This document shows, one piece after another, positions 2,489-25,015 of a stretch of 64,000 nucleotides of DNA. The stretch covers positions 78,077 through 142,076 of the forward strand of contig JAYZXF010000017.1 of assembly GCA_036141575.1 (NCBI GenBank), written 5' to 3'. This stretch comes from Pseudomonadota bacterium (lineage in GTDB: Bacteria; Pseudomonadota; Alphaproteobacteria; UBA2136; JAPKEQ01). A program made the position numbers and the translations under genes. The stretch's first letter is position 1. Every line of letters starts with the position of its first letter. The notes under the pieces were generated by a model that saw only the letters and a program-made list of their open reading frames with translations, was not told where the DNA came from and made no database searches.

Positions 2489-2499
2489 CTGAAAACCTT

Positions 2500-2956: not shown

Positions 2957-2963
2957 ATGAAAA

Positions 2964-2985
2964 GCAGCCCTTGAAAAAGGGCTGC
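2964..2985 (-). terminator. rho-independent terminator
   Basis: GCAGCCCTT-gaaa-AAGGGCTGC, A/T-flanked. Confidence 0.75.
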
Positions 2986-2999
2986 TTCGAAAAATCGAT

Positions 3000-3419
3000 T
3001 TATTTGCCTCCAGGGTTCAGCAGACCAGTCAGAAAGTTTTCAAAAATTTTCTGTTGTTGGGCCACATAGGCCTGAGCCAGCATGCCGGCCATCACAGACA
3101 TGTTCTTCAGCTGCTGCAGTTGTGCAGAACCGAGGCCATTGGCTTTGACGGTTTTTTCGAAGTCTTCAGCGAACTCGTTCACAGCGGCTTTGGCTTCTTC
3201 AAACATTTCCAGTGGCGAACGCGGACCTTGCGCCAGAGCTTTCATCAGCTCAAGGAAGTCAACATCGTCACGCTTCAGATACTCTTCCAGCAGAGCAATC
3301 AGCTCTTCTGAGGTGGTATTGGCGGCTTCAAATTCGCCTTCGCTACCATGTTCCGTCATGCGGCGGGTTGTCTCTTGAATAGCTTCCAAAAGCTCTTCAT
3401 TTGTGCGGGTATCAGTCAT
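3000..3419 (-). CDS. hypothetical acidic helical protein (139 aa)
   Basis: ATG at 3419 preceded by GGAG. Terminator 2964-2985 directly downstream. Confidence 0.6.
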   Translation of the reverse strand: MTDTRTNEELLEAIQETTRRMTEHGSEGEFEAANTTSEELIALLEEYLKRDDVDFLELMKALAQGPRSPLEMFEEAKAAVNEFAEDFEKTVKANGLGSAQLQQLKNMSVMAGMLAQAYVAQQQKIFENFLTGLLNPGGK

Positions 3420-3449
3420 CAAACTCTCCAGTCAATGGGGTGAGGGAAA

Positions 3450-3474
3450 CAGGCTCTTACTTGTTAAGAGCCTG
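3450..3474 (-). terminator. rho-independent terminator
   Basis: CAGGCTCTTA-cttgt-TAAGAGCCTG. Confidence 0.7.
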
Positions 3475-3481
3475 AACAGAT

Positions 3482-3883
3482 TTAGCCAATGCCGTTGGCT
3501 TCCAGGAAGGCGTCGTAGTATTTGGCGCGCTCTTCAAACAGGGCTTTGGTCAAAATCACAAGCAGCTGCATGGTGCTATTAACCACCTGCAGTTCAGCTT
3601 CGCCAGCTTCGCCTCTGGCCTGCAGTTTTGCTTTTTCTTCTGCATATTCTGGCAGGAGGTATTCCAGCTGTTGCAGAACCTCAAAAGCTTCACCACTGAA
3701 AACGGTTTGTGCAAGGTTCGAGACGGTGGTATTGGGCAGAGCTACATACTCCTGACAAAGTGCAACCAAATTGGCCAGAGGCTCAATTGCGCCAGCATCA
3801 TCGTCGCGTTCTGCAGCAGCCATCATATTGGAGGCTTCCACTTGAATTTTTGCCATCAGCAGTTCAGGGGATTGTTCAGACAT
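3482..3883 (-). CDS. hypothetical acidic helical protein (133 aa)
   Basis: ATG at 3883 preceded by GGAG (spacing about 7). Terminator 3450-3474 downstream. Confidence 0.6.
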   Translation of the reverse strand: MSEQSPELLMAKIQVEASNMMAAAERDDDAGAIEPLANLVALCQEYVALPNTTVSNLAQTVFSGEAFEVLQQLEYLLPEYAEEKAKLQARGEAGEAELQVVNSTMQLLVILTKALFEERAKYYDAFLEANGIG

Positions 3884-3921
3884 AAGAATCTCCATTGTCT
3901 AAAAAAAGGGAAGGGTGATAG

Positions 3922-3950
3922 ATCAAAATCACCCCTGTTGTATACGCCAA
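3922..3950 (-). promoter_or_regulatory. related promoter-like motif TTGGCGTATAC
   Basis: On the minus strand: TTGGCGTATAC (-35 at 3945-3950), 17-nt spacer, TTTGAT (3922-3927). Upstream of 3482-3883. Confidence 0.3.
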
Positions 3951-4029
3951 GGTGTTGCATTGTCAAACTTAAATGGGAAATGAAAAACAAAAAAGCTCCC
4001 CAAATTGGGAAGCTTTGCTTTCGAGTGAT

Positions 4030-4263
4030 TTAGAAGGACTGGCCAATGGCTTTGGAAAGCGTGATGGTGTTTTCAGTCTGCTGCTGGATGAGTGCTGCAG
4101 CCAGCTTGGCTGGTGGCGTTGGTGCAAAGTTCACCATCAGGGCACTGCATTGACGCATAGGCGTAAAAACAAGTTGTTCTTGCGCTTGCCGTGTTACGTT
4201 GGCGTAAGCCTGCGTGTAAGTATGCATGGCTTGAAGAGTACCCAAAGGCGTAAATAGAGTCAT
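4030..4263 (-). CDS. hypothetical small protein (77 aa)
   Basis: ATG with 'gagagg' upstream. Hairpin 3994-4014 right after the stop. Preferred over the overlapping ORFs 3973-4257(+) and 4073-4462(-). Confidence 0.45.
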   Translation of the reverse strand: MTLFTPLGTLQAMHTYTQAYANVTRQAQEQLVFTPMRQCSALMVNFAPTPPAKLAAALIQQQTENTITLSKAIGQSF

Positions 4264-4380
4264 AGAACCTCTCTGTAAAACGGTATGGTGGGTTGTTAGG
4301 AGCGCAGAAAGTAGGGGAAAGCAGGAGATCTGTCAATATATAAAAACAGCCCCCTTGCGAGAGCTGTCTTTGATTTCGAT

Positions 4381-4953
4381 TTAACCGAGGCCTTGGCCTT
4401 CTTCTGGCCAGAGGCGTGCACTGGCGCGGTCGCAGTTGCCAACATGGGCTGCAAGCGGGCAAGAGACACGGTGGGTGTTGGTGTAATCATCACCTTCACC
4501 ATGGGTATATTTCAACGCGTTCCACTCATTATCAGTCAGTTCAAAATCATAAGTTTTCATGAGCTCAAGAATGATACGCTTCTTAATGAATTCCCAATAT
4601 TTTGGAACAACATGTTGAAGCTCTGTATGCCAGTGTGCCACGCGCGGATCAGTAGGGTCTGCAAATTTGAAGATCTTCTCAATGTCATGGAAGAAAAACG
4701 TAACCGCAGCACTGCCTTTGGTAAAAGGCAGTGGACGAATCTGTTCCATGCCGTCATAGGTCACATCGTTAATGCGAAGGCCTTCTGCAATATGGTCTGC
4801 ATAGCCGCCAGGCCAAGCTTGGTGGTTATGGGTAGAGCCTGGAGCAGTATGGAAGAGGTCGTGGAAATCACGGTAAATTTGCAAGAGGACATTCTGGCGC
4901 GGATCATTGATCTGCTGAATGAGCCCTTTAAGCTTTGTGTCTAACAGAGACAT
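4381..4953 (-). CDS. HD-domain phosphohydrolase-like protein
   Basis: 'GGYADHIAEGL' followed by 'FFFHDIEKIFK', the H...HD metal-binding pattern of the HD superfamily. AAGGAG lies 6 nt before the ATG at 4953. Confidence 0.65.
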   Translation of the reverse strand: MSLLDTKLKGLIQQINDPRQNVLLQIYRDFHDLFHTAPGSTHNHQAWPGGYADHIAEGLRINDVTYDGMEQIRPLPFTKGSAAVTFFFHDIEKIFKFADPTDPRVAHWHTELQHVVPKYWEFIKKRIILELMKTYDFELTDNEWNALKYTHGEGDDYTNTHRVSCPLAAHVGNCDRASARLWPEEGQGLG

Positions 4954-5034
4954 AAGCATCTCCTTGTATAAAACGTGTTCAAAGATTGAAGAGTTCTTTT
5001 TTTATATCGTGGCTTTAAACATGTGGCAATGAAA

Positions 5035-5058
5035 AAGCCCCTTTATAGGAAGGGGCTT
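5035..5058 (-). terminator. rho-independent terminator
   Basis: AAGCCCCTT-tatagg-AAGGGGCTT. Confidence 0.75.
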
Positions 5059-5107
5059 TATCTCGATTTAGCAGTACTGCGTATGGTCTCCTAAGGTAAG
5101 GGTGGGG

Positions 5108-5461
5108 TTAGCCGCGGGCCAGCTCAAGGAACGTGCGCATGGCTTCTGCCAGCGGGTTCAAACCAATCAGAGCACCAGGGTTCTCAGTTTTGGTTCTTTC
5201 AATCAGATCCTCAAGGCCTTTCAGGCCTTTTTCGCCGGTTGCCAAGGCATGTGCTGGCATACCAATCATAGTGGCAATCTCTTCAGCGCTCACTTCACCG
5301 CGGACAATCATGTTTTTCACTTCGGAAAACAGGCCAAGGGCGGCTTCTGCAGTTGCAGTGAGCATAGCAAGATTATCGGCTTTGAGTGCTTTACTGGCTT
5401 CACGTACAGCCATTTGGGCTGCACCAAGAAAGTTTTCAGCTTTAGCAAGATTCATATTCAT
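5108..5461 (-). CDS. hypothetical helical protein (117 aa)
   Basis: ATG at 5461 with GGAG upstream. Promoter-like TTGACG-17-TAGGGT at 5516-5544. Terminator 5035-5058. Confidence 0.6.
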   Translation of the reverse strand: MNMNLAKAENFLGAAQMAVREASKALKADNLAMLTATAEAALGLFSEVKNMIVRGEVSAEEIATMIGMPAHALATGEKGLKGLEDLIERTKTENPGALIGLNPLAEAMRTFLELARG

Positions 5462-5636: not shown

Positions 5637-5951
5637 TTAGTTCATTTCCAGTGGAATTTTCACAAGGAAGCTCTGACCGTATGTTTTCTTCTTCGGATCA
5701 AATCCGCTGAGTTTAACGTACGAGTACGGGAAGCGACGGCTGCAAGCATCAACCTGCGTCATCACCCAGCTCGCGCTGACTTCTTTGTGCTCTGGAATTG
5801 GCCAGATTTTCCAGTACACCTCTTCAGGTGTTGGTGCATCTGAGAACTCAATCATTGGCACTTGGCCTTCTGCAAGCATGTTTTGTGCTTGCATGTGCAC
5901 TTGGTTACTCGTCAGAGGCGGTAGGAATGAAAATGTTTCAAAACGTCTCAT
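5637..5951 (-). CDS. RuBisCO small-subunit-like protein (RbcS/CbbS family)
   Basis: 'RRFETFSFLPPL', 'YWKIWPIP', 'YVKLSGFD' and 'SFLV' match hallmark small-subunit motifs. Lies 15 nt downstream of the RbcL-like gene. Terminator 5577-5603. Confidence 0.85.
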   Translation of the reverse strand: MRRFETFSFLPPLTSNQVHMQAQNMLAEGQVPMIEFSDAPTPEEVYWKIWPIPEHKEVSASWVMTQVDACSRRFPYSYVKLSGFDPKKKTYGQSFLVKIPLEMN

Positions 5952-5966
5952 TGTTTTTATCCTTTC

Positions 5967-7670
5967 TTAGTCATCCAAACCTGGACGAGTGTCATCAGTT
6001 ACGGGTTTCAGTGGGGTTACAACTTTTGGCGCTGTTGTTGTTTCTTCAATCTTAGCACCTGTTGCTGCGTCACCTTTCACAACACCAAACAGGAAGGCTC
6101 CTTCGTTCCAGAATTCTAGAGCGGCTTTCAGTTCGCTGTTGTAGCGGGCTGCACGTTGTAGAATTGTACGACCGTCAACACTTAGGTTATGACCTTCACC
6201 ACGGGCTTGTGCAATGGCTTCAATCGCCGTACGGCAAGCTGTTGCACCGCTGCCTAGGCCCCAAGGGTGACCCATTACTGATCCACCACACTGGATGATC
6301 ATGTCATCGCCCATTGCGTCCATCAGGCGAGGGAAGTGCCATGGGTTGTGTCCACCACCCACAGCAGGCCATACAGTGGCACCACCTACAGAGGGTTGGT
6401 CAAACATGATACCTGTTTCAACAGATGTTTTTGGTGCATCTTCAACAAGCATATCAACAATACCTTTCACGTGACGGCGGTTACCCGTATCACCACGCAG
6501 TGGACTACCGATACTTACCATGTCACAACCTGTGAAGCGAAGAAGCTTCGCAATCAGGCCTTCTGTCATTGTTGCGCTCATGAGGCTACGTCCGCCCATG
6601 GCACCAATAATCACATCGTTGTTCTGACACCAGTTCACCATGCTTGCAAGAGCACTCCAGCCGACAGCAGAGCTATCAACAATCATCATGTTGATGCCAA
6701 GCTCTTTTGCATATTCTGCACGAGCTGTCATATCTTCAACTGTTGGGGCACTAATGTTCACAGCGTGGTATTTCACTTCGCCCGTTTCTTGCTGTGCAGC
6801 AAAGGCAGCTTCAGCCACAAAACGGAAGCGACGGCGCCAGCTATTGTCTGGCAGGCTGTGCATCATGGTTGGGTCGGCAGTCATATCTACACCGCCTTTA
6901 AGTGTTTCGTACACCGCACGGCCGTACATCTTAGGTGATAGGCCGTTCATTGGGCGCATTGTGCTACTTAGCAGTGGGCGACCGTACTTGCTGGCAAGGT
7001 CACGCATACCAATCACACCGTATGAAGGTGTTTTAAATGTACGTGCAAGCCCAACAGGAATGCGGGCATCAACAATACGTGCACCTGTAGATGTAATAGG
7101 GGCACTGATCACGCTAATAAGGCTGACCATAGAGCCTGCTTCTACCATTTCTTGTGGGATGATCAGGCTTACGTTAACTGTAGAGCTATCTACGCGCTTT
7201 GTTTCAAGCAGTTTTACTTGTGGCACTGTCTCGTGGTCTACAAGAGAACCTGTCCAGCTTTCCACCCAGTCACCGTTTGCTGCGCTTACAAGAAGGTTAC
7301 CGCATTCGTTTTGGCTGAATGTTGTGTTCTCGTACTGGTAGCTAACAAGGATGTCTTGTTCTGGGTTAAAGCCTTGGTCTTCCTTACGGCGACCACGTGA
7401 GTCTGGCTTTTCATCAGTCGTTGGGGCTGCTACGGCTGCAAATGATGTCGTGCCGCCTGTTAGGCTGTCTAGCGATACACCAAGAACCGTGGCGATTTTA
7501 ACCACGTTATCTAGAGAAGGGCTTACTTGTCCGCCAAGGATGCGTGAGAGCGTTGCCATCGACACACCAGACTGGCGAGACAGGTCAGATGCAGACATGC
7601 CGTTCTTTTCCAAAATCTTTTTTAGAGCCTCAGGTAGGTTGTAAGGGCTCTCTGTTGTTTTCTTTGTCAT
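5967..7670 (-). CDS. XRE-family HTH fused to a RuBisCO large-subunit-like (non-catalytic) domain
   Basis: N-terminal Cro/C1 HTH ('MSASDLSRQSGVSMATLSRILGG'), then collinearity with Form I RbcL ('KYGRPLL', 'YGRAVYETLKGG', 'CGGSVMGHPWG'). Catalytic motifs are replaced, e.g. DFTKDDE becomes DMTADPT at 6867-6896. The ATG at 7670 has 'aaggaaa' upstream. Confidence 0.85.
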   Translation of the reverse strand: MTKKTTESPYNLPEALKKILEKNGMSASDLSRQSGVSMATLSRILGGQVSPSLDNVVKIATVLGVSLDSLTGGTTSFAAVAAPTTDEKPDSRGRRKEDQGFNPEQDILVSYQYENTTFSQNECGNLLVSAANGDWVESWTGSLVDHETVPQVKLLETKRVDSSTVNVSLIIPQEMVEAGSMVSLISVISAPITSTGARIVDARIPVGLARTFKTPSYGVIGMRDLASKYGRPLLSSTMRPMNGLSPKMYGRAVYETLKGGVDMTADPTMMHSLPDNSWRRRFRFVAEAAFAAQQETGEVKYHAVNISAPTVEDMTARAEYAKELGINMMIVDSSAVGWSALASMVNWCQNNDVIIGAMGGRSLMSATMTEGLIAKLLRFTGCDMVSIGSPLRGDTGNRRHVKGIVDMLVEDAPKTSVETGIMFDQPSVGGATVWPAVGGGHNPWHFPRLMDAMGDDMIIQCGGSVMGHPWGLGSGATACRTAIEAIAQARGEGHNLSVDGRTILQRAARYNSELKAALEFWNEGAFLFGVVKGDAATGAKIEETTTAPKVVTPLKPVTDDTRPGLDD

Positions 7671-7840
7671 TAAATTTTCCTTATATGGTAGCGAGCTACC
7701 ATTACGGTTATTCATTTACCTATTAAATGTAGTATCGCACAGGCTGTGCTTTTGCACAAATGGAAATATTGCAGATGTGGAAGAATTTCAAGGGCTGAAA
7801 TCAAAAAAATATCAAAAAAATAAAGGTGACTTTGTTTTTG

Positions 7841-8381: not shown

Positions 8382-8510
8382 ACAGTATATGGCCCCCCTT
8401 TACAGGGCGGTCTTTTTCTTTTGTGGTTGACAGGTCTGGGAAATCCAGTATATTCGCCCATTCTGAAATACTTATTGAGTACCTGTTTACCTTTTTATTT
8501 GTCACCTGCT

Positions 8511-8657
8511 ATGGAGGATAACTTGCTAACACCTGTTGCATTTTGCGTTGGACTGGCTTTTGGATATTTCGTGCTTCCGCTTTTGCTTGCCGCTCGGGCT
8601 TTGCCTGACTCAAGCCTAAGCCTGATGCCCGAAAAGGACGAAGAAGGCACGCCTTGA
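8511..8657 (+). CDS. possible small membrane protein (48 aa)
   Basis: First ATG inside ORF 8421-8657. One hydrophobic helix. No clear RBS. Terminator about 8685-8706. Confidence 0.25.
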   Translation: MEDNLLTPVAFCVGLAFGYFVLPLLLAARALPDSSLSLMPEKDEEGTP

Positions 8658-8769
8658 TGCCTGTATGTGATTGAATCGAAATGGAAGTCGCCCTGTTGGG
8701 CGGCTTTTTTATTTGTGTTACGCTCTATAAGAAATCAGGTTGGTTATAAATGACTAAGGGAATATCTTA

Positions 8770-9582
8770 ATGAGACACACAGTATGGATTGCGTCGTTGG
8801 CGCTTTTGTGTGCAGTAAATGCGCAAGCTTCAGAAGGAATTGCAAGGCAAATTCAGTCTCTTAAAACAGCAATGGATGGGTTTGCAGCAACTGCAAGAGC
8901 GCAAATTGCGTCCAATACAGCGAGTATTACTGAAAACGTAAGAATTATTGACTCTTTTGAGACCTGTGCTGAAAGCGGGATGATGTATGCCCCTGATGAT
9001 GTGACAGCGAATGCAGATGGCTGTAAGCGCGTCACCTCAACACAAGCGCTCAATGAAATTGATGTGTCAAGCCAGCTTGTGGCAACAGGCCGGTGGCTAC
9101 ACCCTTATAACTTTAGTGAGCATTCATCAAATGGGTCTCCATCAAAACGTGGCCGTTCTTATGCGCAGATTTATCGTATTAATGATCCTGATAATTATAA
9201 CAACTACCTGATTTCTGGTAATCTTTTTGGTGGTGGTAGTCGTTCTCATGATGAGGGTCAGTTCAGTTGTTGGAATGCTAATACTTATGTAAAGATTGGT
9301 AGTGGTTGGGTTTCTACAAACGGTGATTCTATTAAAATTGAACAGCTTGCCAATGTGTCTAAAACGCGTGTGGCAGGCCATGTTTATAATGGCACATTCC
9401 AAAACCAAATTGCGATTGTAAAGCGTACATCTCATAGCTGTTATAATAACGGAGGGGATTTAAATATGGGAATGAAGGTTAATTACATTACGTATCACAA
9501 TGGTATGAATGCACGTGCATCTTATCATGATAGTGACTCGCGAGCTTCAACACTGCGTGTGACAAACATTATTGGTTTTTAA
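8770..9582 (+). CDS. secreted coiled-coil protein, 'EGxxRQxxSLK' family (F1)
   Basis: Signal peptide ...AVNAQA, then 'SEGIARQIQSLKTAMDGF', a Cys loop 'CAESGMMYAP...DGC', and a C-terminal domain paralogous to 12170-13015. Confidence 0.75.
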   Translation: MRHTVWIASLALLCAVNAQASEGIARQIQSLKTAMDGFAATARAQIASNTASITENVRIIDSFETCAESGMMYAPDDVTANADGCKRVTSTQALNEIDVSSQLVATGRWLHPYNFSEHSSNGSPSKRGRSYAQIYRINDPDNYNNYLISGNLFGGGSRSHDEGQFSCWNANTYVKIGSGWVSTNGDSIKIEQLANVSKTRVAGHVYNGTFQNQIAIVKRTSHSCYNNGGDLNMGMKVNYITYHNGMNARASYHDSDSRASTLRVTNIIGF

Positions 9583-9633: not shown

Positions 9634-10206
9634 ATGAGTAAAGTATTTAAAGGGAGTGCAGCTGTTGGCGCTTTAATGGCGGCGACAAGTGCTGCTGCAC
9701 ATGACCACGACTTTCCGAACTTGAATTACGATGCCAATGCACCTGTGCCTGATGGCATGAGCGAGGTGTGCTCTCCAAGTGATCTGGAATACTTGCAGTG
9801 GCAAGCCAATGATTTTGTGGTTGATAATCAAGTTCAGTTTCAGCCTAAAGATGATGCGGCACAGGGCTATATGCAAGCTTATGCCGAGCTCCATGAAGGG
9901 GACAATGCATTTGAGGCTTATAAAGGTTATAGTGATCGTGCTTTTGAGCACTATAAAGAGTTTGATAATGTTGCTAAGCAGGTTGAGCGCGGCATGGTCA
10001 GCTATGATGAAGTAGATCAACAGATTCTTGGTCGTATTAATGAGCTTGGTCACCTTGAGCAGTTTTATATTAATTCTATTCAGGCTGAGAAGATTGCAGC
10101 AAACTTTGAAATGCAGTACGGCGAGGGGTCTTTTGCCCGTTACGCTGGTATGCAGGTTGAAGTGGAGCTTGGAGAGCTCAACTGCGATATTGAAGCTGAG
10201 CGCTAA
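9634..10206 (+). CDS. secreted acidic hypothetical protein (190 aa)
   Basis: Signal-peptide-like N-terminus 'GSAAVGALMAATSAAA'. Terminator 10224-10245. Confidence 0.6.
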   Translation: MSKVFKGSAAVGALMAATSAAAHDHDFPNLNYDANAPVPDGMSEVCSPSDLEYLQWQANDFVVDNQVQFQPKDDAAQGYMQAYAELHEGDNAFEAYKGYSDRAFEHYKEFDNVAKQVERGMVSYDEVDQQILGRINELGHLEQFYINSIQAEKIAANFEMQYGEGSFARYAGMQVEVELGELNCDIEAER

Positions 10207-10223
10207 AGGATTTATCTAAAAAA

Positions 10224-10245
10224 AAGCCACCCCGAAGGGTGGCTT
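10224..10245. terminator. bidirectional terminator
   Basis: AAGCCACCC-cgaa-GGGTGGCTT with A-run and T-run flanks. Confidence 0.8.
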
Positions 10246-10275
10246 TCTTTATTTACGTCGATTTGCTTTGGCGTT

Positions 10276-10851
10276 TTAGTCGTTGTTGCCGAATGGGTTG
10301 ACGCCGCCATCTTCACCAGTCTCGAAAGTCTGGCTGGTTGCGGCGCTGACCACCGGAGCACAGACGCTGCCGGGCTCTTTTTGCTTCGGGTCGACCTTGG
10401 CCGGGAAGTTCATCAGGCCGTAGACCAGGTTGCCGGGGAATTTCTCCAGCGAGTTGGTGTAGGCGACGCACTTGTCAATCAGCAGTTTCTGCGCATTGGC
10501 GAAGGTGGTCCGGCCGATTTCGATCTGATCCTGAATGGTTTTGTACAGGGTCATGTCGACTTCGGGGTTGTCTTCGGTCAGGGCCAGCAGCAGGGCGCTG
10601 GCACCGCCATCACCGTAGCGGTTCTGGAGTGCACCAGAAATCACTTCTGCGACCGCGTCCTTGTAGGCATCGGCCACGCCAGCGGATTCGGTCACCGACT
10701 GAGCGAACGCGTTGTATTTGATTTTGTTTTCATCGTAGGTGCCCATGATGCCATTCTCATGGCTGATGCCGGTGTTGTACGTGGAAATGGCCACGCCACC
10801 TGCCAGAGCCAGAGGGACTGCGACGATTGCTGCGATAATAAGACCTTTCAT
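10276..10851 (-). CDS. membrane-anchored protein, distant LemA-like
   Basis: ATG at 10851 (MKGLIIAAIV...) with GGAG 7 nt upstream. N-terminal TM helix. The C-terminal 'RTTFANAQKLLIDKCVAYTNSLEKFPGNL' resembles the LemA tail pattern (weak). GC-rich. Confidence 0.55.
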   Translation of the reverse strand: MKGLIIAAIVAVPLALAGGVAISTYNTGISHENGIMGTYDENKIKYNAFAQSVTESAGVADAYKDAVAEVISGALQNRYGDGGASALLLALTEDNPEVDMTLYKTIQDQIEIGRTTFANAQKLLIDKCVAYTNSLEKFPGNLVYGLMNFPAKVDPKQKEPGSVCAPVVSAATSQTFETGEDGGVNPFGNND

Positions 10852-10942
10852 GATGATTCTCCATGATGTGAAAGGTTGAGAAGGAAGGGTGAAAGCTTGG
10901 CCGGAAAACCGCCCAAGCAAGTATTATATTTCCTGTGTGCTC

Positions 10943-11998: not shown

Positions 11999-12169
11999 GT
12001 GTTTTCTCCTTAAAATGTACGAAAGATTACAGTAGTGATGAAATTGTGATCATCCCTTTAATGAAATTCAAGGTTTTGGGTGTTTTTTTTAGGAGATATG
12101 AGCTTGTGTGTTAACCTATAAGAGAAAGCAGGGTTATAAAAAAGAGGGGTCCCTTACAAAGTGAGGCAT

Positions 12170-13015
12170 ATGCTTAAAGTATCAGCATTAACTGCTGTGT
12201 GTGTGATTGGAATCGTGAATTATGTGCAAGCGAGTGAAGGAATTGCTCGTCAAGTACAAGCCTTAAAGTCCTCTATGGATAGTTTTGCTGCGACTGCTCG
12301 TGCTCAGCTTGCTGCTCAGGCGGTAAGCATTACAGAGAATGTACGTATGATTGACGCTTTTAAAACCTGTGCAGATAAAAACATGCTGTATACGCCTGAA
12401 AATCAGGCGGCAGATGTGGATGGCTGTTCTGCGATGTCTGGCTCTGGGGAAGTAAATGAAATTGATATGGCAACAGAGGTTGTGCCAACAAACCAATATT
12501 TTAATGTGGAACATGGCAGGGAGCAAACTGGAGGCGGTGGAGTAACTCGTGGCTCTCCTGCACGTATCTATCAGATTAATGACTCTGGAAATTATCAAAC
12601 ATATCAAGTTGTCGGTAATATCCGAGGCTGGGGTTGGCAATGGGATGATGAAGATCATGCTTATGACCATTGTTATGCTTATCAGCCTTATGTGAAAATT
12701 GGCGGGAGATGGCATGTCTCTGACTCTGATACTGTGACAATCCGTACTGTTGCAAACCAAAATAAAACCATTCTAAATGGCCGTATGGTGAATGGAAGTT
12801 TTGATAAAAGAATAGCTGTTGCTAAAGGAACAGCTTTCAGATGTGGTCGTCGTGGGGATACAAATGCTTTATATCAGATTTTTAATGATATGCGTAAGAG
12901 CCATGTGACTTGGTCTGATGCTTTAGCTTCTGGTCAAAGGGCTTGTTCTCATCATGACCCTCTTAATTGCAGAAATAGTGCATCGCTTGGTATACACTAT
13001 ATTGTTGGCTATTAA
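12170..13015 (+). CDS. secreted coiled-coil protein, 'EGxxRQxxSLK' family (F2)
   Basis: ATG at 12170 with GAGG upstream (the ORF track starts at GTG 12161). Signal peptide, 'SEGIARQVQALKSSMDSF', Cys loop 'CADKNMLYTP...DGC'. Full-length paralog of 8770-9582. Confidence 0.75.
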   Translation: MLKVSALTAVCVIGIVNYVQASEGIARQVQALKSSMDSFAATARAQLAAQAVSITENVRMIDAFKTCADKNMLYTPENQAADVDGCSAMSGSGEVNEIDMATEVVPTNQYFNVEHGREQTGGGGVTRGSPARIYQINDSGNYQTYQVVGNIRGWGWQWDDEDHAYDHCYAYQPYVKIGGRWHVSDSDTVTIRTVANQNKTILNGRMVNGSFDKRIAVAKGTAFRCGRRGDTNALYQIFNDMRKSHVTWSDALASGQRACSHHDPLNCRNSASLGIHYIVGY

Positions 13016-13114: not shown

Positions 13115-14146
13115 ATGCGCTATACAGTTCCTGCTGGGCGCAATGAAGCGCCCTATGCCCTATGGCATGAAAAAAGCATACAGGCGCGAAGCTGGTATTT
13201 AGCTTTAGGTATGATGTATCCCGTGATTATATGTATTGCCCTTGGGCTGCATGGCGGGGTAGGAACCTTTATGAGTGCCATTTTCTACGCAGTCTTGCTT
13301 TTTGGTGTTTCTCGCTTTCAAGCCTATAAAACGGTGCGCTCAGCACCTGAAGAATTTGCGCGTAAGGCTATTCCTGAAACCTCACCTCAATATCGTCAGG
13401 CTCTCCTTATGATTGAGGAGCTTTGCCAGCGTGCAGGTGTGGATTGGAGGCCTCAGCTTATTGTGTTTGAAAGTGAAGGCTTTGACGGTTTTGCAAGCCA
13501 TCCCCCTGGACGGGACCCCTATATTATCCTGAGTACAGGTGCTTTTCTTTATGGGAAGAGAAGTGTACGTGCTGTGATCGCTCATGAGCTGTCTCATATG
13601 CTGCACGGGGATATGACCCTTGTTGAGAGGGCAACCATCCTGCATATGGTGACAATGGCTATGCTTGCTCTTATTTTGTCTGTTCCAATGGCTATGGCTG
13701 GTGGAGAGTCTGCTGACAGTGTTTTCTTTCTTGTGTTTTTATTGGGGTTTACCTTCATCTATTTACGTGGATTGAAGATTGCGCTCAATACGCACTCACG
13801 CTACCGAGAGTATTTGGCTGATGGTGGTGCTGCCGCTTTAATTGGCTGGGAAAACCGTATGGATATGGCGGTTGCACTGCACTGGACTTTTGTTGCCTTT
13901 AAAGAGCTTCTGAAAAAGAAGGTGAGGCAAGGGCAGCTCTACAAAGATTTCCGTCACCCTCAAACTGGGGCACCCCCTAGAGAAGGATGGCTTGAAGACA
14001 TGCAACAAAAAGCGCTGGATGCGATTGATGAAATGGAGGAAACCTCTTCCATTATGAATACGCACCCAACCAATAAAGAGCGCTATGCTGCGCTCGATAT
14101 TACCGAAGACGAGCTGAAGCAAGCTCTTGAGGATCATGCGCTATAA
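13115..14146 (+). CDS. M48-family (HtpX-like) zinc metalloprotease, membrane
   Basis: HExxH motif 'AHELSHMLHGD' flanked by TM helices. Terminator 14156-14177. Confidence 0.7.
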   Translation: MRYTVPAGRNEAPYALWHEKSIQARSWYLALGMMYPVIICIALGLHGGVGTFMSAIFYAVLLFGVSRFQAYKTVRSAPEEFARKAIPETSPQYRQALLMIEELCQRAGVDWRPQLIVFESEGFDGFASHPPGRDPYIILSTGAFLYGKRSVRAVIAHELSHMLHGDMTLVERATILHMVTMAMLALILSVPMAMAGGESADSVFFLVFLLGFTFIYLRGLKIALNTHSRYREYLADGGAAALIGWENRMDMAVALHWTFVAFKELLKKKVRQGQLYKDFRHPQTGAPPREGWLEDMQQKALDAIDEMEETSSIMNTHPTNKERYAALDITEDELKQALEDHAL

Positions 14147-14155
14147 AAAATCGAG

Positions 14156-14177
14156 AAGCCCCCTGTGTTGGGGGCTT
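14156..14177 (+). terminator. rho-independent terminator
   Basis: AAGCCCCC-tgtgtt-GGGGGCTT followed by TTT. Confidence 0.8.
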
Positions 14178-14326
14178 TTTATTTGCGCGCTGCTGAAGTT
14201 TTTTTTAAATAGTTTTTTTCATTGAAAGGTATAGAGCGGCTCTGTAAAGTTGACGCATTCTATAGAAAATATGTCTTCCGTTTTCTTATCCTTGATCTGA
14301 GGTGTTTCTATTTTTGTGAGGTCATT

Positions 14327-14827
14327 ATGCTTAAGACCTGTCTGCGCGGCTTTTTGCTGCTCTCTTTTCTTGTTCTGTCTGCTTGTGCCGTCGCTATTCC
14401 TGAAGAAGACTGGTATATCACTCTTGCCAAACGCAATACACAAAACGGTGTTGTTACCATTACTGAAGATGATGGTGGGCTGGTTTATCCGCGTATTCAT
14501 TACATTGAAAATGTGATTGAGGCCCGTAACCAAAGTGTACGTATTATTGCACCTGAATGCATTTCGGCTTGTACGATGTATCTTGGGGTCAGCAATGTGT
14601 GCACTGCGCCTTATACTCGCTTTATGTTCCATGGCCCTTGGGATAGTTCAGTAGCTAACTATACTGAAACGCCTGCATTTCAGCATACGTCACGTGCCAT
14701 TGCACGTTACTATCCAGCGCCTATCCGTAGAGCCTTTATGAAAAGTTATCGTCATTTGGGACCCTATGAGTTTCATACAATTACGGGCGAAGAGCTTATT
14801 GCCGCAGGGCATATAAGAGCCTGCTAG
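14327..14827 (+). CDS. lipoprotein, unknown function
   Basis: ATG at 14327 with GAGG 6 nt upstream. Lipobox-like 'FLVLSAC'. Confidence 0.6.
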   Translation: MLKTCLRGFLLLSFLVLSACAVAIPEEDWYITLAKRNTQNGVVTITEDDGGLVYPRIHYIENVIEARNQSVRIIAPECISACTMYLGVSNVCTAPYTRFMFHGPWDSSVANYTETPAFQHTSRAIARYYPAPIRRAFMKSYRHLGPYEFHTITGEELIAAGHIRAC

Positions 14828-14843
14828 ATGAATCGAACACAAC

Positions 14844-14867
14844 AAAGCCTCCCAAATGGGAGGCTTT
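14844..14867. terminator. bidirectional terminator
   Basis: AAAGCCTCCC-aaat-GGGAGGCTTT. Confidence 0.8.
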
Positions 14868-14886
14868 GCTTTATCGATGAAAAGAG

Positions 14887-15465
14887 TTACATGCGGAAGC
14901 GGGTTGCTTCTTTCACTGTGCCGTAGACCCATTGGAACCACATGATGCCAGCCAGAGCCGGCAGAACCCAGTCCATTTCATTGGTGATAGCGTCAGCATG
15001 AACATGGCCAGATGCGGTGGTCAGCCAAAAGGCAAACAAGCCTGCCATCAGGTAGAGCTCATTGGGCTCCATGGCACGCACGGCGGTAATTGCACTGGTA
15101 AGCGCAATGGCGCCAATCCAGATCATAGCAAAGATACCAGCGTTTCCGAAGGTGTTCAGCATGTAGCCAGTACCAAAGTAACCTGCAACACTGATCGCGA
15201 TGGTCAGCAAAAAGCGCAGGCCCAGATTCTCCAGACGGGTAATCTTGGCAATCAGGCGGGCAGCACTGCCAACAACCCAGTCCCAGCCGATCAGAAAGAT
15301 GGTTGGAACCAGCTCGCCAGATGTTTTGTGGCTGGTGGTTGGGCGTTCTTCATCCAGTGTGGTATTGCCGACCAAACGGTCAAATAGGATGAACGCGCCG
15401 ATGATCAGGCCCACAAGAAGGAGCACAAAAAGGAAGGGGTTTGAGAAAATCACAACAGACCTCAT
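14887..15465 (-). CDS. polytopic membrane protein (192 aa)
   Basis: Five or six hydrophobic helices. TTGACA-17-TATACA promoter-like sequence upstream. Shares terminator 14844-14867. Confidence 0.6.
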   Translation of the reverse strand: MRSVVIFSNPFLFVLLLVGLIIGAFILFDRLVGNTTLDEERPTTSHKTSGELVPTIFLIGWDWVVGSAARLIAKITRLENLGLRFLLTIAISVAGYFGTGYMLNTFGNAGIFAMIWIGAIALTSAITAVRAMEPNELYLMAGLFAFWLTTASGHVHADAITNEMDWVLPALAGIMWFQWVYGTVKEATRFRM

Positions 15466-16745: not shown

Positions 16746-16994
16746 ATGTCGAATCTTTGGACCCTTGTTGAAAAACAAGAAGCCCGTGCCACAAACCCCA
16801 ACCGTACCCGCGCTGAAGAACTGATCAGCCATGGCCAAAAAACGGGGCGCCTGTCCAACTCGGACTACCGTGACCTGAAGAGCGCACTGCGTTCTGGCAA
16901 TCTGTGCTATGAAGATTTCGGTGTTCACAAAGGCAATGTGAATGACTGGAATGCACGCTGGATGGGCGAAAACGGCTGTGGTCCTCGCGACTAA
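16746..16994 (+). CDS. hypothetical small protein (82 aa)
   Basis: ATG preceded by 'acggagga'. GC-rich relative to flanks. Terminator 17017-17042. Confidence 0.5.
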   Translation: MSNLWTLVEKQEARATNPNRTRAEELISHGQKTGRLSNSDYRDLKSALRSGNLCYEDFGVHKGNVNDWNARWMGENGCGPRD

Positions 16995-17016
16995 GCTGTG
17001 CGTAATCGAAAAAAAG

Positions 17017-17042
17017 AACCCCGTAGCTTATGCTGCGGGGTT
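17017..17042. terminator. bidirectional terminator
   Basis: AACCCCGTAGC-ttat-GCTGCGGGGTT (one G-U pair). Confidence 0.75.
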
Positions 17043-17055
17043 TCTTCTTGTCGTT

Positions 17056-17580
17056 TTATTTTCCGCGCACGTGAATGATGCGGATAATGGATGTGTCGCT
17101 CAGATCAGAGACATCGCCAAGCGACATGACTTGGCGCCGAATGAGGTTTCGAAGAAGTTCTTCTTCTTTATAGCTCACATCAATGAAAGGGTTGTGGCTG
17201 CTTCCAGCTTTGAAAAAAGTGCCGCCATATTGGTTGTCTTTGAGGGCAATATAAAAATATTTATGAGTCGCCGATTTCAAAAACTTCATTTCTTCAGATG
17301 TAAAGGGCACCAGTTCAATGCCGTTGTCCTTAGATTTTTCTGCCATGGCTTGCATGTAGCTTTTACCCTCTACCACACGGCAGATATTGGGTTTAAGTGC
17401 GCTATAGCCAGCGTTAATGACATCGCACAGTGCTTGCCACTCTCTCGGCGGAATGGGTTTAAGTTCATCGCCTTTGTGGGCATCGCGGTAATAACCGTGC
17501 TCTTCATTCACAAAGTAGAAACGCTGATGCGTATAAATGCGGGCGTAAACCAAAAGGGCGTCGTTGTTGAGTCGTTTCAT
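17056..17580 (-). CDS. hypothetical protein, 'WQxLC' paralog family (A)
   Basis: ATG at 17580 (MKRLNNDAL...) with GGAG upstream. Motif 'REWQALCDVI'. One of three tandem paralogs. Confidence 0.6.
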   Translation of the reverse strand: MKRLNNDALLVYARIYTHQRFYFVNEEHGYYRDAHKGDELKPIPPREWQALCDVINAGYSALKPNICRVVEGKSYMQAMAEKSKDNGIELVPFTSEEMKFLKSATHKYFYIALKDNQYGGTFFKAGSSHNPFIDVSYKEEELLRNLIRRQVMSLGDVSDLSDTSIIRIIHVRGK

Positions 17581-17676
17581 GGAGAGGCTCCAGAGAAAAA
17601 GAAAATCAAAGATATGAGTTGCCTTATTTTTACAAGGAGTAGAGAGGCTTGGCAAGGTGTTTCCTGCAAAACAAAA

Positions 17677-24515: not shown

Positions 24516-24902
24516 ATGCCTTTAGGTTTTGAACGGTGGGAAGACGCGACGCTAGAGCAGCTTTATGAAGCGATTATGACGTATTTTGACGTAGTGCTCA
24601 AAGAGGCTGAAGAGCTTGACTTTGAAATATTTAGCGTAAGCGAAGACGGAGCTGTGACCCATAAAGGGACCACCACTTTAAATTTGATGTTTGTTTGCCT
24701 TGCTGTAGACGTGCTGCGTAAACATCACCAGATGAGCAGTGCCAGTGTGGCTCATGCTCTGAGTGATCTTGGTTATAAGCCGTGCCGCGAGGCCGTGCTC
24801 AAACTCATTGATGCTTATGATGGTGACGGTGTTGAATCAGAGTTCAAAGTAAGCCGTGATCGCGTATTTGACGTGGCACGCCTTTTGAGCTCTGCAGACT
24901 AA
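24516..24902 (+). CDS. hypothetical protein (128 aa)
   Basis: ATG ORF. Terminator 24911-24934. Confidence 0.5.
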   Translation: MPLGFERWEDATLEQLYEAIMTYFDVVLKEAEELDFEIFSVSEDGAVTHKGTTTLNLMFVCLAVDVLRKHHQMSSASVAHALSDLGYKPCREAVLKLIDAYDGDGVESEFKVSRDRVFDVARLLSSAD

Positions 24903-24910
24903 ATCGAGAA

Positions 24911-24934
24911 AAGCCCCTTTTGTGTAAGGGGCTT
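24911..24934 (+). terminator. rho-independent terminator
   Basis: AAGCCCCTT-ttgtgt-AAGGGGCTT followed by TTTG. Confidence 0.8.
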
Positions 24935-25015
24935 TTTGTTTGACGTTACATGAGTGGCTCGCTATGTTGAAATCAATTCTGATCTCTTATCTTTTGTTTT
25001 CAAGGAGTTTTTCTG

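Follow-up and report, generated by a model that had tools for sequence, protein, structure and literature searches.

A Clade-Specific Six-Letter Motif, A[A>C]TCGA, Lies 5' of Intrinsic-Terminator Hairpins in Fast-Evolving Alphaproteobacterial Genes

Introduction

Why should the same six letters stand in front of one terminator hairpin after another? In the 64-kb stretch of DNA analyzed here (the window), an initial annotation drew attention to the hexamer AATCGA, which recurs between stop codons and terminator hairpins, and offered for it such roles as a conserved terminator-upstream element, a restriction or methylation site, and a DNA-uptake-like signal. The end of a bacterial 3'-UTR is usually seen as a sequence-independent hairpin followed by a U-tract. 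To our knowledge, the 3'-end binders ProQ/FinO and Hfq read shape and composition and not a defined word, and the tagging of a transcript class at its 3' end is known so far from organelles and eukaryotes. Our search of the literature gave no report of AATCGA or of any other bacterial sequence word next to terminators. We ask here how the hexamer is placed and specified, which lineages and genes carry it, and in which molecule it is probably read.

Results

Position of AATCGA in the Window

The abundance of AATCGA in the window is ordinary: both strands together hold 19 copies, and dinucleotide shuffles gave 22.45 ± 5.38. An unbiased scan of all 4096 hexamers in the interval from the stop codon to +40 nt placed AATCGA at rank 1, with 10 genes observed and 0.46 expected (p = 7e-11). 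What is unusual is solely where the hexamer stands, its overall count being no higher than expected. The non-randomness suspected in the initial annotation was confirmed, and the enrichment holds against the k-mer background, the comparison that had been proposed as its refutation.

All 12 AATCGA coordinates reported at the outset were found to be exact; in every case a stop codon stands on one side of the copy and a GC-rich hairpin with a T-run on the other. Five are on the + strand and seven on the − strand, all of them in a single replichore with uniform GC skew. There are 13 motif units in the window, including one with the variant ACTCGA, and each has a GC-rich stem with a ΔG of −13 to −25 followed by a T-run, as is characteristic of intrinsic terminators. 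The units, and the ATCGAT that faces the flagged site, are as follows.

1188–1234, − strand: AATCGA unit; the motif (1229–1234) shares two A's with the TAA stop of gene 1233–1667 (TAATCGA); gap of 5 nt; hairpin 1188–1223, ΔG −25.0.
1738–1772, − strand: AATCGA unit; the motif (1767–1772), palindromic AAATCGATTT, lies 3 nt past the stop of gene 1775–2488; hairpin 1738–1762.
2961–3000, − strand: AATCGA unit, TAAATCGA; the motif (2995–3000) starts on the last stop base of gene 3000–3422; hairpin 2961–2988.
3985–4026, − strand: ACTCGA variant unit; the motif (4021–4026) lies past gene 4030–4263; hairpin core 3992–4016.
4342–4381, − strand: AATCGA unit; TAAATCGA overlaps the stop of gene 4381–4959 (HD-domain family); hairpin 4342–4371.
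5034–5068, − strand: AATCGA unit; the motif (5063–5068) lies 40 nt past the stop of gene 5108–5461; hairpin 5034–5059.
8674–8707, + strand: AATCGA unit; the motif (8674–8679) lies 16 nt past the stop of gene 8421–8657; hairpin 8684–8707.
10222–10263, − strand: AATCGA unit; the motif (10258–10263) lies 12 nt past the stop of gene 10276–10920; hairpin 10222–10247, bidirectional and common to gene 9634–10206, whose side has no motif.
14149–14178, + strand: AATCGA unit; the motif (14149–14154) lies 2 nt past the stop of the M48 peptidase gene 13115–14146 and abuts hairpin 14155–14178.
14831–14868, + strand: AATCGA unit (the flagged site); the motif (14831–14836) lies 3 nt past the TAG stop of gene 14222–14827; bidirectional hairpin 14843–14868.
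14873–14878, − strand: ATCGAT on the far side of hairpin 14843–14868; CATCGA in the sense of gene 14887–15465, in the expected place, off-consensus, and of a form that is not enriched.
17004–17043, + strand: AATCGA unit; the motif (17004–17009) lies 9 nt past the stop of the small gene 16746–16994; hairpin 17016–17043, common to the convergent gene 17056–17655.
24902–24936, + strand: AATCGA unit; TAAATCGA overlaps the stop of gene 24516–24902; hairpin 24909–24936.
62104–62140, − strand: AATCGA unit; the motif (62135–62140) lies 11 nt past the stop of gene 62152–62868; hairpin 62104–62125.

About one-third of the gene-end terminator hairpins of the region have AATCGA, occasionally ACTCGA, on their 5' side and inside the transcript. 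The motif had been described as present at many genes, but its distribution is not uniform: it is found at 11 of 25 terminators in 1–25 kb and at 0 of 21 in 25–62 kb (Fisher p = 3.6e-4, curated count). The copy at 62135–62140 is the sole AATCGA–terminator site outside of 1–25 kb. Terminator-like sites as such occur in the window at ~1.6–2.3 times the shuffle expectation. An Rfam search of the window gave no family, and a search of it for tRNA and tmRNA gave none.

Spacing, Orientation, and Consensus

The motif was initially placed within 0–25 nt after the stop codon. It does follow the stop, at a distance of −2 to +40 nt, and the spacing that is tight is the gap from motif to hairpin (0–11 nt, mode 4–6). 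The predicted mean unpaired probability was 0.65 for the motif versus 0.52 for the preceding 20 nt.

At the terminators of tandem genes (n = 52, four species) the motif was found 22 times sense-upstream of the hairpin, 0 times sense-downstream, and 0 times antisense-downstream (binomial 5e-7); there were 2 antisense-upstream copies, both palindromic. This 22:0:0 sidedness, together with the use of both DNA strands within one replichore, indicates that the orientation follows transcription and not replication or the symmetry of the hairpin. The frequency of the motif is 22/52 for tandem pairs and 11/35 for convergent pairs. An activator site for the downstream promoter was considered and rejected, as the motif is equally frequent at convergent pairs, which are without a downstream promoter. 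The idea that the motif extends the stem or pairs past the U-tract was also rejected; the block that is conserved downstream, TTTGAC, belongs to the following promoter as its −35 element.

In the clade, 35 of 55 AATCGA copies (64%) and 7 of 18 ACTCGA copies stand before a terminator. For the other 14 NN-TCGA forms, and for AATCAA, AATTGA, and AATCGG/T/C, this fraction is at most 25% and mostly below 10%. Each of the six positions is specified, giving A[A>C]TCGA, with ACTCGA as the one real variant. The ATCGAT sites at 14873–14878 and 32283–32288, originally counted as variants, are CATCGA and GATCGA, respectively, when taken in gene sense. Only 2/19 and 1/11 of the clade's copies of these two forms precede terminators; not being enriched there, the forms are not supported as members of the motif family. 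The hairpin first delimited as 14844–14867 had been credited with one copy on each side. The copy at 14831 stands, and the far one is rightly placed but has the off-consensus form CATCGA. A longer consensus, TAAATCGA, was rejected as well: the preference for T-A at positions −2/−1 comes mostly from sites that really overlap a stop codon and fades at those that do not.

Conservation and Clade Restriction

AATCGA is the top hexamer after stop codons in the window and in the related loci L083, L090, and L097, and in L094 it precedes a terminator in 4 of 6 copies. The association with terminators is specific to one uncultured alphaproteobacterial clade, in which it was found in four species, and is absent from sister lineages. 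Outgroup alphaproteobacteria have 1 of 14 copies before terminators, unrelated genomes (1.33 Mb) 13 of 518, and 34 further lineages 4 of 241; the fraction is 64% in the clade versus 2.5% elsewhere (~1.6 Mb; Fisher p = 5e-31). Loci from a contig scan with S9, in which the relatives among the matches listed were all at ≤63% identity and mostly from Firmicutes, served as the negative control. A metagenome scan with an alignment of the HD protein gave at least 34 loci, with none from the clade among the matches listed. The early label of a conserved terminator-upstream element is supported for a motif that is non-random, runs in the direction of the transcript, has been kept in four species, and is confined to a single clade.

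In four species the orthologs of gene 24516 all have an unchanged AATCGA, even though their stop codon is TAA in some and TGA in others, the end of the coding sequence has diverged, and the hairpin in L094 is unrelated. The orthologs of gene 4381–4959 likewise keep the motif while its surroundings change, with AATCGA in L083, L090, and L094 and ACTCGA in L097. The site orthologous to 1767–1772, at L083:3260, has kept AATCGA, and the ACTCGA of the window at 4021–4026 is AATCGA in the L083 and L090 orthologs. The comparisons at genes 24516 and 4381–4959 point to purifying selection on the motif, independent of structure. Turnover is also seen. The motif of the M48 peptidase gene is found in L090, L097, and L089 and has been lost in L083 and L091 (AAATTAAAA); at this gene L090 has TAAATCGAAAGG versus TAAATTAAAAGG in L083. 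At gene 3482, L083 has TAATCGA versus TAACCGA in L090. Such gain and loss between close relatives implies that selection per site is weak or that the element is individually dispensable.

Marked Genes and Coding Sequences

The motif marks fast-evolving, lineage-specific genes and not housekeeping ones. A common protein class among the marked genes was looked for and rejected, since the products include acidic cytoplasmic proteins as well as membrane and secreted ones. PHROGs and PADLOC searches with the ORFans gave no phage or defence similarity except for one weak PHROG of unknown function. Motif-bearing and motif-less terminators have a ΔG of −17.5 versus −16.8, with equal U-tracts and equal distances from stop to hairpin, and the motif is therefore not a termination crutch that compensates for weak terminators.

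Within the ORFs of the window, the corrected gene set contains 0 sense and 5 antisense copies of AATCGA, and the crude gene set has 1 sense copy versus 6.6–8.4 expected (P about 0.003). The ORFs of three species contain 3 sense copies versus 9.0 expected (P = 0.014), with antisense copies at expectation. When the expectation is taken from a Markov model of maximal order it is only 1.7 sense copies and the avoidance vanishes, since the 5-mers are rare too. The avoidance of AATCGA on the sense strand of ORFs is only moderately significant, and it is the pattern expected from a signal that is active in mRNA.

Discussion

The interpretation that we favor, although we put it at a little short of an even chance, is that A[A>C]UCGA is a single-stranded RNA tag in the 3'-UTR, read by a clade-specific protein beside the terminator hairpin. 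We infer action at the RNA level, a protein as the reader, and control of stability or processing as the outcome. The motif would be a sequence-specific cis element of the mRNA that is transcribed, untranslated, and single-stranded, 0–11 nt 5' of the intrinsic-terminator hairpin. A protein confined to the clade would read A[A>C]UCGA base by base, and the motif and the foot of the hairpin would together form a composite binding platform that combines a geometry of the FinO/ProQ type with a strict sequence reader. The bound factor would then set the 3'-end fate of the region's class of fast-evolving, lineage-specific transcripts. It might do so by shielding the 3' end or by cutting away the protective hairpin, in which case the motif would be a class-marking endonuclease site, as GGAG is for T4 RegB. 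The processing or cleavage site named in the initial annotation would fall under this second option and may still apply. The choice between A and C at position 2 does not resemble wobble pairing, and this favors a protein over a guide RNA as the reader. It counts against the model that the distance from the motif to the GC core of the stem varies by ~11 nt, more than a rigid composite site for a protein would lead one to expect. Among the ~60 proteins of the 64-kb window that were scanned, no FinO/ProQ, KH, S1, PPR, PIN, or MazF-like domain was found.

On geometry alone, a same-strand co-transcriptional reading is also compatible with the motif. The hexamer, as non-template DNA or as nascent RNA, would be recognized by RNA polymerase or by a NusG/RfaH/sigma-like factor before the hairpin forms, and would tune pausing, termination efficiency, or read-through. 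We consider this unlikely, though it is the best of the alternatives. It predicts the observed orientation and side just as the RNA tag does, and it too would lead one to expect that sense ORFs avoid the motif. There is precedent for short non-template-strand motifs at terminators; the NusG of B. subtilis reportedly acts there via the non-template-strand TTNTTT. Conditional read-through could couple neighbors in co-directional arrays such as that at 1233–5461 (− strand). However, motif-bearing terminators are neither weaker nor otherwise different, the distance from motif to stem varies, and the motif is found at 11/35 convergent pairs versus 22/52 tandem pairs even though read-through between convergent genes serves no downstream gene. 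The consensus of the elemental pause, G-10/Y-1/G+1, is not matched either, the −10-equivalent being G in only 3/34 sites.

It is improbable that the hexamer is a duplex-DNA site for a clade-specific DNA-binding protein, which could be an HTH-fused, dead RuBisCO or a nucleoid-associated or silencer-type protein. The nucleation motif of H-NS is TCGATAAATT, and AATCGA partially resembles it; the marked genes, lineage-specific and fast-evolving, are the usual targets of silencers. Each of the six syntenic clade loci that span the region has the gene for the HTH-pseudo-RuBisCO, whereas no copy of it was seen at the syntenic loci of outgroups (5–20 kb per genome); motif sites cluster within ~20–25 kb of the gene, and a multimeric RuBisCO scaffold with many HTH domains would suit dispersed half-sites. 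A duplex site would nevertheless leave unaccounted for both the 22:0:0 orientation and side at tandem terminators and an ORF avoidance that is confined to one strand. Conservation extends over no more than a 6-bp half-site, and there is no surplus of palindromic copies. In addition, the HTH gene has a conserved palindrome of its own, ATGGTAGC-TC-GCTACCAT (7685–7702), which lies between its promoter and Shine-Dalgarno sequence, is unrelated in sequence to the motif, and has the look of a typical XRE auto-operator. The HTH-fused RuBisCO pseudo-enzyme of this locus is of independent interest, and a search of the literature found nothing on an HTH-RuBisCO fusion.

It is also quite improbable that the hexamer is functionless, a by-product of mutation or insertion, or of the common descent of terminator modules in the manner of a miniature repeat. 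The fast gain and loss between close relatives and the presence of the motif at only ~1/3 of the terminators are what such an origin would give. The hairpins of motif units, however, show no closer kinship with each other (mean identity 0.60) than those of motif-less terminators do (0.57) or than pairs across the two classes (0.57), with no repeat family linking them. The motif is invariant at orthologous sites amid changed surroundings, and it reached the top rank independently in four species. Decaying copies would be expected to leave a halo of near matches, yet other variants at the two 5' bases or at the last base are not enriched.

We would give only a slim chance to an element that works in the opposite direction, in which UCGAUU, past the U-rich side of a bidirectional hairpin, strengthens antisense termination or acts as a roadblock. 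Most of the hairpins do have a short A-tract on their sense 5' side and are hence bidirectional, and an antisense polymerase would meet the complement of the motif 5–15 nt after leaving the stem, approximately at the point of release. The geometry mirrors that of the sense model. Copies of such an element in ORFs would be harmless or helpful, and yet that orientation is the depleted one and the reverse is at expectation. An A-tract is missing altogether from some sites (1767: AATCGAttttTCACCC), and the frequent fusion of the motif with the sense stop codon (TAAATCGA) would be meaningless.

A signal for DNA uptake or recombination, as suggested in the initial annotation, is very improbable. USS and DUS occur at terminators in the Pasteurellaceae and Neisseriaceae, and the proximity to terminators and the restriction to one clade resemble uptake sequences. 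The motif, on the other hand, shows no global excess (19 versus 22.45 copies), is depleted rather than abundant in ORFs, and marks just part of the region. It occurs in one orientation, outside of the stem and never as the inverted pair that makes a stem, and has only six informative bases, versus a core of ~9–12 for USS/DUS.

Least probable of all, and close to negligible, is a target of restriction-modification, of an orphan methyltransferase (TCGA, ATCGAT), or of CcrM. TCGA is contained in the motif and is among the rarer tetramers throughout this bacterial group, but TCGA and ATCGAT are at 1.06 and 0.93 of Markov expectation, with neither avoidance nor excess specific to the palindromes. 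On the 5' side of TCGA the informative positions continue asymmetrically (A, A/C), GANTC, as GAATC or GACTC, arises only where G precedes the motif (5/34 sites), and a signal that is specific for one strand and one side (22:0:0) cannot be explained by such a site. An IHF site (WATCAA-N4-TTR), pairing with the anti-SD tail of 16S rRNA, complementarity to the tRNA T-loop (UUCGAUU), an ECF-type −10/−35 element or antisense promoter, an integron attC, IS200/IS605, or group IIC intron target, and a stop-codon read-through context were set aside by inspection or from background knowledge.

Comparison with Known Systems

The units resemble ordinary intrinsic terminators in having a GC-rich stem-loop and a T-run 0–45 nt past the stop codon, many of them bidirectional and common to convergent genes. 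They differ in that the canonical type has no sequence-specific 5' element beyond an optional A-tract, whereas here a strict hexamer is present at ~1/3 and is uncorrelated with terminator strength.

FinO-domain proteins bind the lower stem of a terminator and need single-stranded flanks 5' and 3' of it, and the sequence of the flank sets their specificity (PMC11912907, PMC12001967). AATCGA occupies the same 5' flank as the sites of ProQ, FinO, and RocC, with its gap of 0–11 nt and its predicted unpaired probability of 0.65. The known ligands, by contrast, show only a compositional preference for A-rich sequence, without an invariant hexamer. The resemblance to FinO sites may indicate a possible mode of working and not membership.

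Mitochondria are of alphaproteobacterial descent. The yeast mitochondrial dodecamer, or 3'-RPE, is a lineage-specific element of mRNA 3'-UTRs that is read by the PPR protein Rmd9, which defines and protects the 3' end (PMC11789488). It can be likened, by analogy only, to the present motif as a short lineage-specific 3'-UTR element of many mRNAs that sometimes overlaps or precedes the stop codon. The dodecamer, however, is organellar, 12 nt long, without an adjacent terminator hairpin, and carried by essentially all mRNAs, whereas the element described here has 6 nt, is associated with a hairpin, and belongs to a subset of genes.

USS/DUS share with the motif the character of a short clade-specific sequence near terminators; AATCGA differs in being without excess, in one orientation, outside of the stem, and depleted in ORFs. 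REPs have GTAG 5' of their stem and form hairpins in 3' intergenic regions. The similarity to REP/BIME (RAYT) elements lies in 3' intergenic hairpins that have a short conserved word on the 5' side of their stem, but REP copies have a common stem sequence, whereas here the stems are unrelated and the 5' element is A[AC]TCGA, with no GTAG. The proteins scanned in the 64-kb window include none with a RAYT (Y1 transposase) domain.

The RegB endoribonuclease of T4 cuts at GGAG, and mRNA interferases of the MazF type use sites of 3–7 nt. Such class-marking sites are short and strict RNA words at a set place in a class of transcripts, and are rare in coding sequence otherwise. AATCGA is comparably short and strict, and its avoidance in sense ORFs, although only moderately significant, may correspond to this rarity. 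A nuclease domain of the PIN or MazF-like type was not found among the ~60 scanned proteins of the window.

A strict six-letter word between stop codon and terminator in the fast-evolving genes of one lineage would be new, and would mean that bacteria could tag transcripts for common handling. A[AC]TCGA plus terminator offers a searchable handle for a hunt for the reader by phyletic profiling of metagenome-assembled genomes, for the question of how newly arisen genes come under control, and for analogous 3' words in other poorly sampled lineages. A bolder reading would be a dedicated recognition of mRNA 3' ends, in which a protein that reads A[A/C]UCGA by the hairpin imposes a common post-transcriptional fate on a class of new lineage-specific genes; we regard this as a real but rather unlikely prospect. 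In the most extreme version, the reader of A[A/C]UCGA would be the clade-defining, HTH-fused, catalytically dead RuBisCO particle from the center of the motif-rich zone. Such a recognition system would be the bacterial counterpart of the logic of the organellar 3'-RPE and Rmd9 or of the eukaryotic AAUAAA.

A Hexamer between Stop Codons and Terminators

The hexamer AATCGA was found between the stop codon and the terminator hairpin of a dozen genes in the window. The interval that was first flagged reads CTGCTAG ATG AATCGA acacaa CAAAGCCTCCCAAATGGGAGGCTTTG ctttATCGATgaaaag. The initial annotation had proposed a non-random element upstream of terminators, and all 12 of its AATCGA coordinates were exact. 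The 19 copies on both strands do not represent an excess relative to the 22.45 ± 5.38 copies in dinucleotide-preserving shuffles. Twelve of the 19 have a stop codon on one side and a GC-rich hairpin with a T-run on the other, read in the sense of the terminating gene. So that no eye-picked motif was judged, all 4096 hexamers were scored, on a crude gene map, for enrichment between the stop codon and +40 nt. AATCGA ranked first (10 genes versus 0.46 expected, p = 7e-11) and outranked GGGGCT, AAAGCC, and similar generic terminator words. The proposed enrichment over k-mer background was thus upheld, and since the hexamer is first in an unbiased scan without a global excess, the signal is positional and not compositional.

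Replication in Related Loci

Syntenic loci were collected through exact-protein look-ups. These comprised three further species of the clade (L083/L090/L091, which are mutually close; L094; and L097), a short contig of another member (L089), and the outgroup loci L092, L093, L095, L096, and L098. The whole evidence base is ~190 kb of one genomic neighborhood from four to five uncultured species. The nearest relatives of the ribosomal protein S9 are from uncultured organisms labeled "MAG: Alphaproteobacteria bacterium" (92%, 91%, and then 83–70% identity), with Rhodobacterales-type sequences next at ~69%. No Rfam families or tRNA genes were found in the window; many of its proteins have no match to any curated family, and some others occur only in Logan assemblies. 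A common gene order around rplM-rpsI is the hallmark of the clade; among its genes are an HTH-fused RuBisCO large-subunit homolog, a small-subunit gene, and many small Pfam-less genes. In the outgroups, the genes for S9, DUF6776, bactofilin, a hexapeptide protein, and an aldolase are directly adjacent, whereas the clade has inserted ORFans that separate them, at S9|DUF6776 and at hexapeptide protein|aldolase.

In the unbiased hexamer test, AATCGA was first in L083 (6/12, p = 2e-6), L090 (7/10, p = 2e-8), and L097 (9/13, p = 3e-10), and third in L091. A terminator follows four of the six copies in L094. No enrichment was found in L092, L093, L095, L096, or L098. A single detector was used for all groups, which required a stem with ΔG ≤ –10 plus a T-run no more than 22 nt after AATCGA. 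The first census of the clade gave 26 positives among 42 copies (62%), and the five clade loci including L097 gave 35 of 55. The corresponding values were 1/14 for outgroup alphaproteobacteria, 13/518 (2.5%) for unrelated genomes (1.33 Mb), and 4/241 for 34 further lineages (277 kb). The association of motif with terminator in the clade, relative to unrelated genomes, has a Fisher p of 5e-31.

Anatomy and Orientation of the Motif

Among the 16 NN-TCGA forms in the clade, only AATCGA (35/55) and ACTCGA (7/18) stand out as preceding terminators, with the remainder at or below 25% and mostly below 10%. The last-base variants AATCGG, AATCGT, and AATCGC and the internal variants AATCAA and AATTGA are at background level; specificity resides in all six positions. 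The flanks are merely A/T-rich, and the T-A at –2/–1 is largely due to fusions of the motif with the stop codon (TAAATCGA, TAACTCGA, and TAATCGA). The distance from stop codon to motif is –2 to +40 nt, and the gap from motif to the A-tract-extended stem is 0–11 nt, with a mode of 4–6. In one or two cases (the M48 gene of L089 and 19521 in L094), the motif lies within the final codons and the hairpin overlaps the gene end.

The hairpins of motif units are ordinary and mutually unrelated. Their mean pairwise identity is 0.60, compared with 0.57 for motif-less terminators and 0.57 across the two classes, and no repeat family connecting them was found. Terminators with and without the motif have median ΔG values of –17.5 and –16.8, respectively, and identical T-runs. 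The stop-to-hairpin distance, which likewise does not differ (11.5 nt with the motif versus 13 nt without), is so short that the hexamer fills about half of the 3′ UTR. Predicted RNA ensembles give the motif moderate accessibility, with a mean unpaired probability of 0.65 versus 0.52 in the preceding 20 nt.

At 52 terminators from four species, each lying between co-directional genes, the motif was found upstream of the hairpin 22 times in the sense orientation and twice in the antisense orientation, both of the latter being palindromic AATCGATT. None was found downstream of the hairpin in either orientation (22 versus 0, p = 5e-7). At convergent gene pairs, both genes may carry a copy, each on the respective gene's side (11 sense-upstream and 8 mirror copies). 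In the window, GC skew is uniformly positive along the stretch that carries five copies on the plus strand and seven on the minus strand, and thus the orientation follows transcription and not replication.

Within ORFs of the window, no sense AATCGA was found with corrected gene calls, and the crude gene set contained one versus 6.6–8.4 expected from synonymous-codon or codon-order shuffles (P about 0.003). Pooling three species gave 3 versus 9.0 expected (P = 0.014). Antisense copies are not depleted (7 versus 7.5 expected). A maximal-order Markov model expects only 1.7 sense copies, because the constituent 5-mers are also rare, and given this value the avoidance is suggestive but not conclusive.

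Genes Marked by the Motif

Of the 25 terminators in 1–25 kb, 11 have the motif in front of them, versus 0 of 21 in 25–62 kb (Fisher p = 3.6e-4); there is one further instance at 62 kb. In L097, the motif-rich zone runs at least 10 kb past the left edge of the window. Almost all of the marked genes are Pfam-less, the exception being the M48 peptidase gene (13115–14146, plus strand); gene 4381 belongs to a wider HD-domain family. The marked genes are fast-evolving (28–79% identity between species). The slow genes of the same stretch (83–94% identical), which encode the RuBisCO-like pair, L13/S9, DUF6776, bactofilin, the hexapeptide protein, and the aldolase, have motif-less terminators. This bimodal divergence of conserved genes and interspersed ORFans across 1–25000 was seen against L083, L090, L091, L094, and L097, with L092, L093, and L096 as outgroups. 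Similarity of the ORFans to phage or defense systems was not found. The motif-free 25–62 kb carries housekeeping genes (PntAB, NifU, SecG, TIM, PpiD, a DEAD-box helicase) and a two-partner secretion pair.

The AATCGA of gene 24516 (24516–24902, plus strand) is identical in four species, while the stop codon is TAA in some and TGA in others and the coding end diverges. The L094 ortholog retains AATCGA beside an unrelated hairpin. Apart from the motif, only one block is invariant: GTTTGAC, which is the –35 element of the promoter that follows. Orthologs of gene 4381 have a similar pattern, with ACTCGA in L097. At the M48 gene, the motif is present in the window, L090, L097, and L089, and AAATTAAAA is found on the same hairpin in L083 and L091. 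At gene 3482, L083 has TAATCGA, L090 has TAACCGA, and the window has no motif; at gene 18393, three relatives have the motif and the window has none. Such turnover occurs even between close relatives; the motif is thus kept as a feature of the class, with selection at each site being weak or dispensable.

Several further features were noted. An ACTCGA at 32737–32742 (minus strand), 4 nt before a strong hairpin (32701–32732), follows a possible 101-aa ORF (32744–33049, minus strand; uncertain gene call) and may be the sole motif unit of the otherwise motif-free 25–62 kb. TTGAC(A)-type –35 elements lie within a few bases after most terminators (e.g., 24943–24948 and 4331–4326, minus strand; GTTTGAC is invariant across species), so most small genes appear to be monocistronic with their own promoter and terminator. 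Gene 4381 (4381–4959, minus strand) is no ORFan: its ~190-aa family is widespread, with conserved H..HD..EK residues and 217 homologs, one of which has the JGI name "YhaM" 3′-5′ exoribonuclease, and the copy in outgroup L098 lies between gyrB and argS. Its product is possibly an RNA-end enzyme, which would be noteworthy within the motif array. The following were also found:

25–732, 8770–9582, and 12161–13015, plus strand: three Pfam-less paralogs with repeat families D2, D6, and D7 (copies 9050–9087 and 12453–12490 are 81% identical)
44105–45106, minus strand: Hint/intein-like domain protein (Hom_end_hint, PT-HINT)
50849–57291, plus strand: two-partner secretion pair, a TpsB-like 700-aa protein and a 1424-aa filamentous-haemagglutinin-type exoprotein
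59005–59119: three tandem 48-nt repeats, each with CGCGGTCGCC[GA]AAGCTGCG, in the C-terminal part of the DEAD-box helicase gene (58646–60676, minus strand), implying a repeated peptide module

An HTH-Fused RuBisCO Homolog

5967–7670, minus strand: RuBisCO large-subunit homolog with an N-terminal XRE-type HTH (best PDB match 7qsw_A, E = 7e-88)
5637–5951, minus strand: RuBisCO small-subunit gene, following the HTH-RuBisCO gene
7685–7702: perfect palindrome ATGGTAGC-TC-GCTACCAT, in the stretch separating the promoter of the HTH-RuBisCO gene from its Shine-Dalgarno sequence

The true start of the HTH-RuBisCO gene is the ATG at 7670–7668; the ORF list extends it to 7715. The protein is a pseudo-enzyme because catalytic residues are replaced: TIKPKLG is changed to TMRPMNG (K175, K177), LDFTKDDE to VDMTADPT (K201, D203, E204), and H294, H327, and K334 are missing as well. 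All syntenic clade loci covering the region have it, and it is 92–94% identical across the clade, while its neighbors drift to 28–79%. No paper on an HTH-RuBisCO fusion was found in the literature. The palindrome arms ATGGTA/TACCAT are kept in L083, L091, and L097, but not in L094; the palindrome is likely an auto-operator for the HTH protein or a 5′-UTR hairpin.

Proposed Function and Alternatives

Five properties, taken together, make recognition of the motif as RNA the best account of the data: a strict six-base specificity, with an A/C alternative that is unlike a wobble pattern; an obligate position close to the 5′ side of the hairpin, in sequence that is transcribed but not translated; ORF avoidance confined to the sense strand; independence from hairpin sequence and strength; and limitation to one clade and one gene class. 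We tentatively propose, at somewhat less than an even chance, that the motif is a single-stranded 3′-UTR element read by a clade-specific protein. This protein would recognize the hexamer base by base, next to the foot of the terminator hairpin, and once bound would either protect the 3′ end or cut the hairpin off. The main rival has the same strand being read co-transcriptionally by RNA polymerase or an accessory factor, and this we regard as unlikely. A DNA-binding site involving the HTH-pseudo-RuBisCO is more doubtful still. Its appeal is that the gene is found where the motif is found and lies centrally in the motif-rich zone, but it is contradicted by the strand and side specificity and by a different conserved palindrome upstream of the gene, in the position of an auto-operator.

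Two other readings in the initial annotation did not survive. A DNA uptake signal is contradicted by the lack of a global excess, the single orientation, the absence from stems, the depletion in ORFs, and the presence of only six informative bases. A restriction or methylation target is contradicted by an asymmetric signal and by TCGA (1.06) and ATCGAT (0.93) being at Markov expectation. TCGA is rare through base composition across the whole bacterial group, outgroups included, and its rarity therefore does not explain the positional effect. A CcrM site was rejected, as GANTC arises by chance only, when G precedes the motif; so were REP/BIME or other repeats (stems unrelated, GTAG absent), a helper for weak terminators (motif-bearing terminators are equally strong), and an activator site for the next promoter (the motif is as frequent at convergent pairs). 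Of the known families considered, DNA uptake sequences, restriction or methylation targets, CcrM sites, and REP/BIME elements each fail at least one testable defining feature. Separate from the motif, a maximal-order Markov model of the whole window shows a strong deficit of CCGG (observed/expected 0.56) and a moderate one of GATC (0.74), which may reflect restriction-avoidance pressure.

The motif is real, replicated, and sharply defined; the function proposed for the RNA element is what we infer from sequence. We rate the motif as lying outside the known kinds of element, and the literature yielded no description of a strict bacterial sequence word that lies between a stop codon and an intrinsic terminator. 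We know of no strict sequence word for the FinO-domain proteins, the family that provides the closest bacterial precedent for the geometry of the motif. These proteins bind the lower part of the terminator stem and require single-stranded sequence on each side of it, with the flank sequence tuning their binding (PMC11912907, PMC12001967). For the logic of the motif, the nearest precedent is the yeast mitochondrial dodecamer/3′-RPE, a lineage-specific 3′-UTR word whose dedicated reader, Rmd9, sets the 3′ end (PMC11789488).
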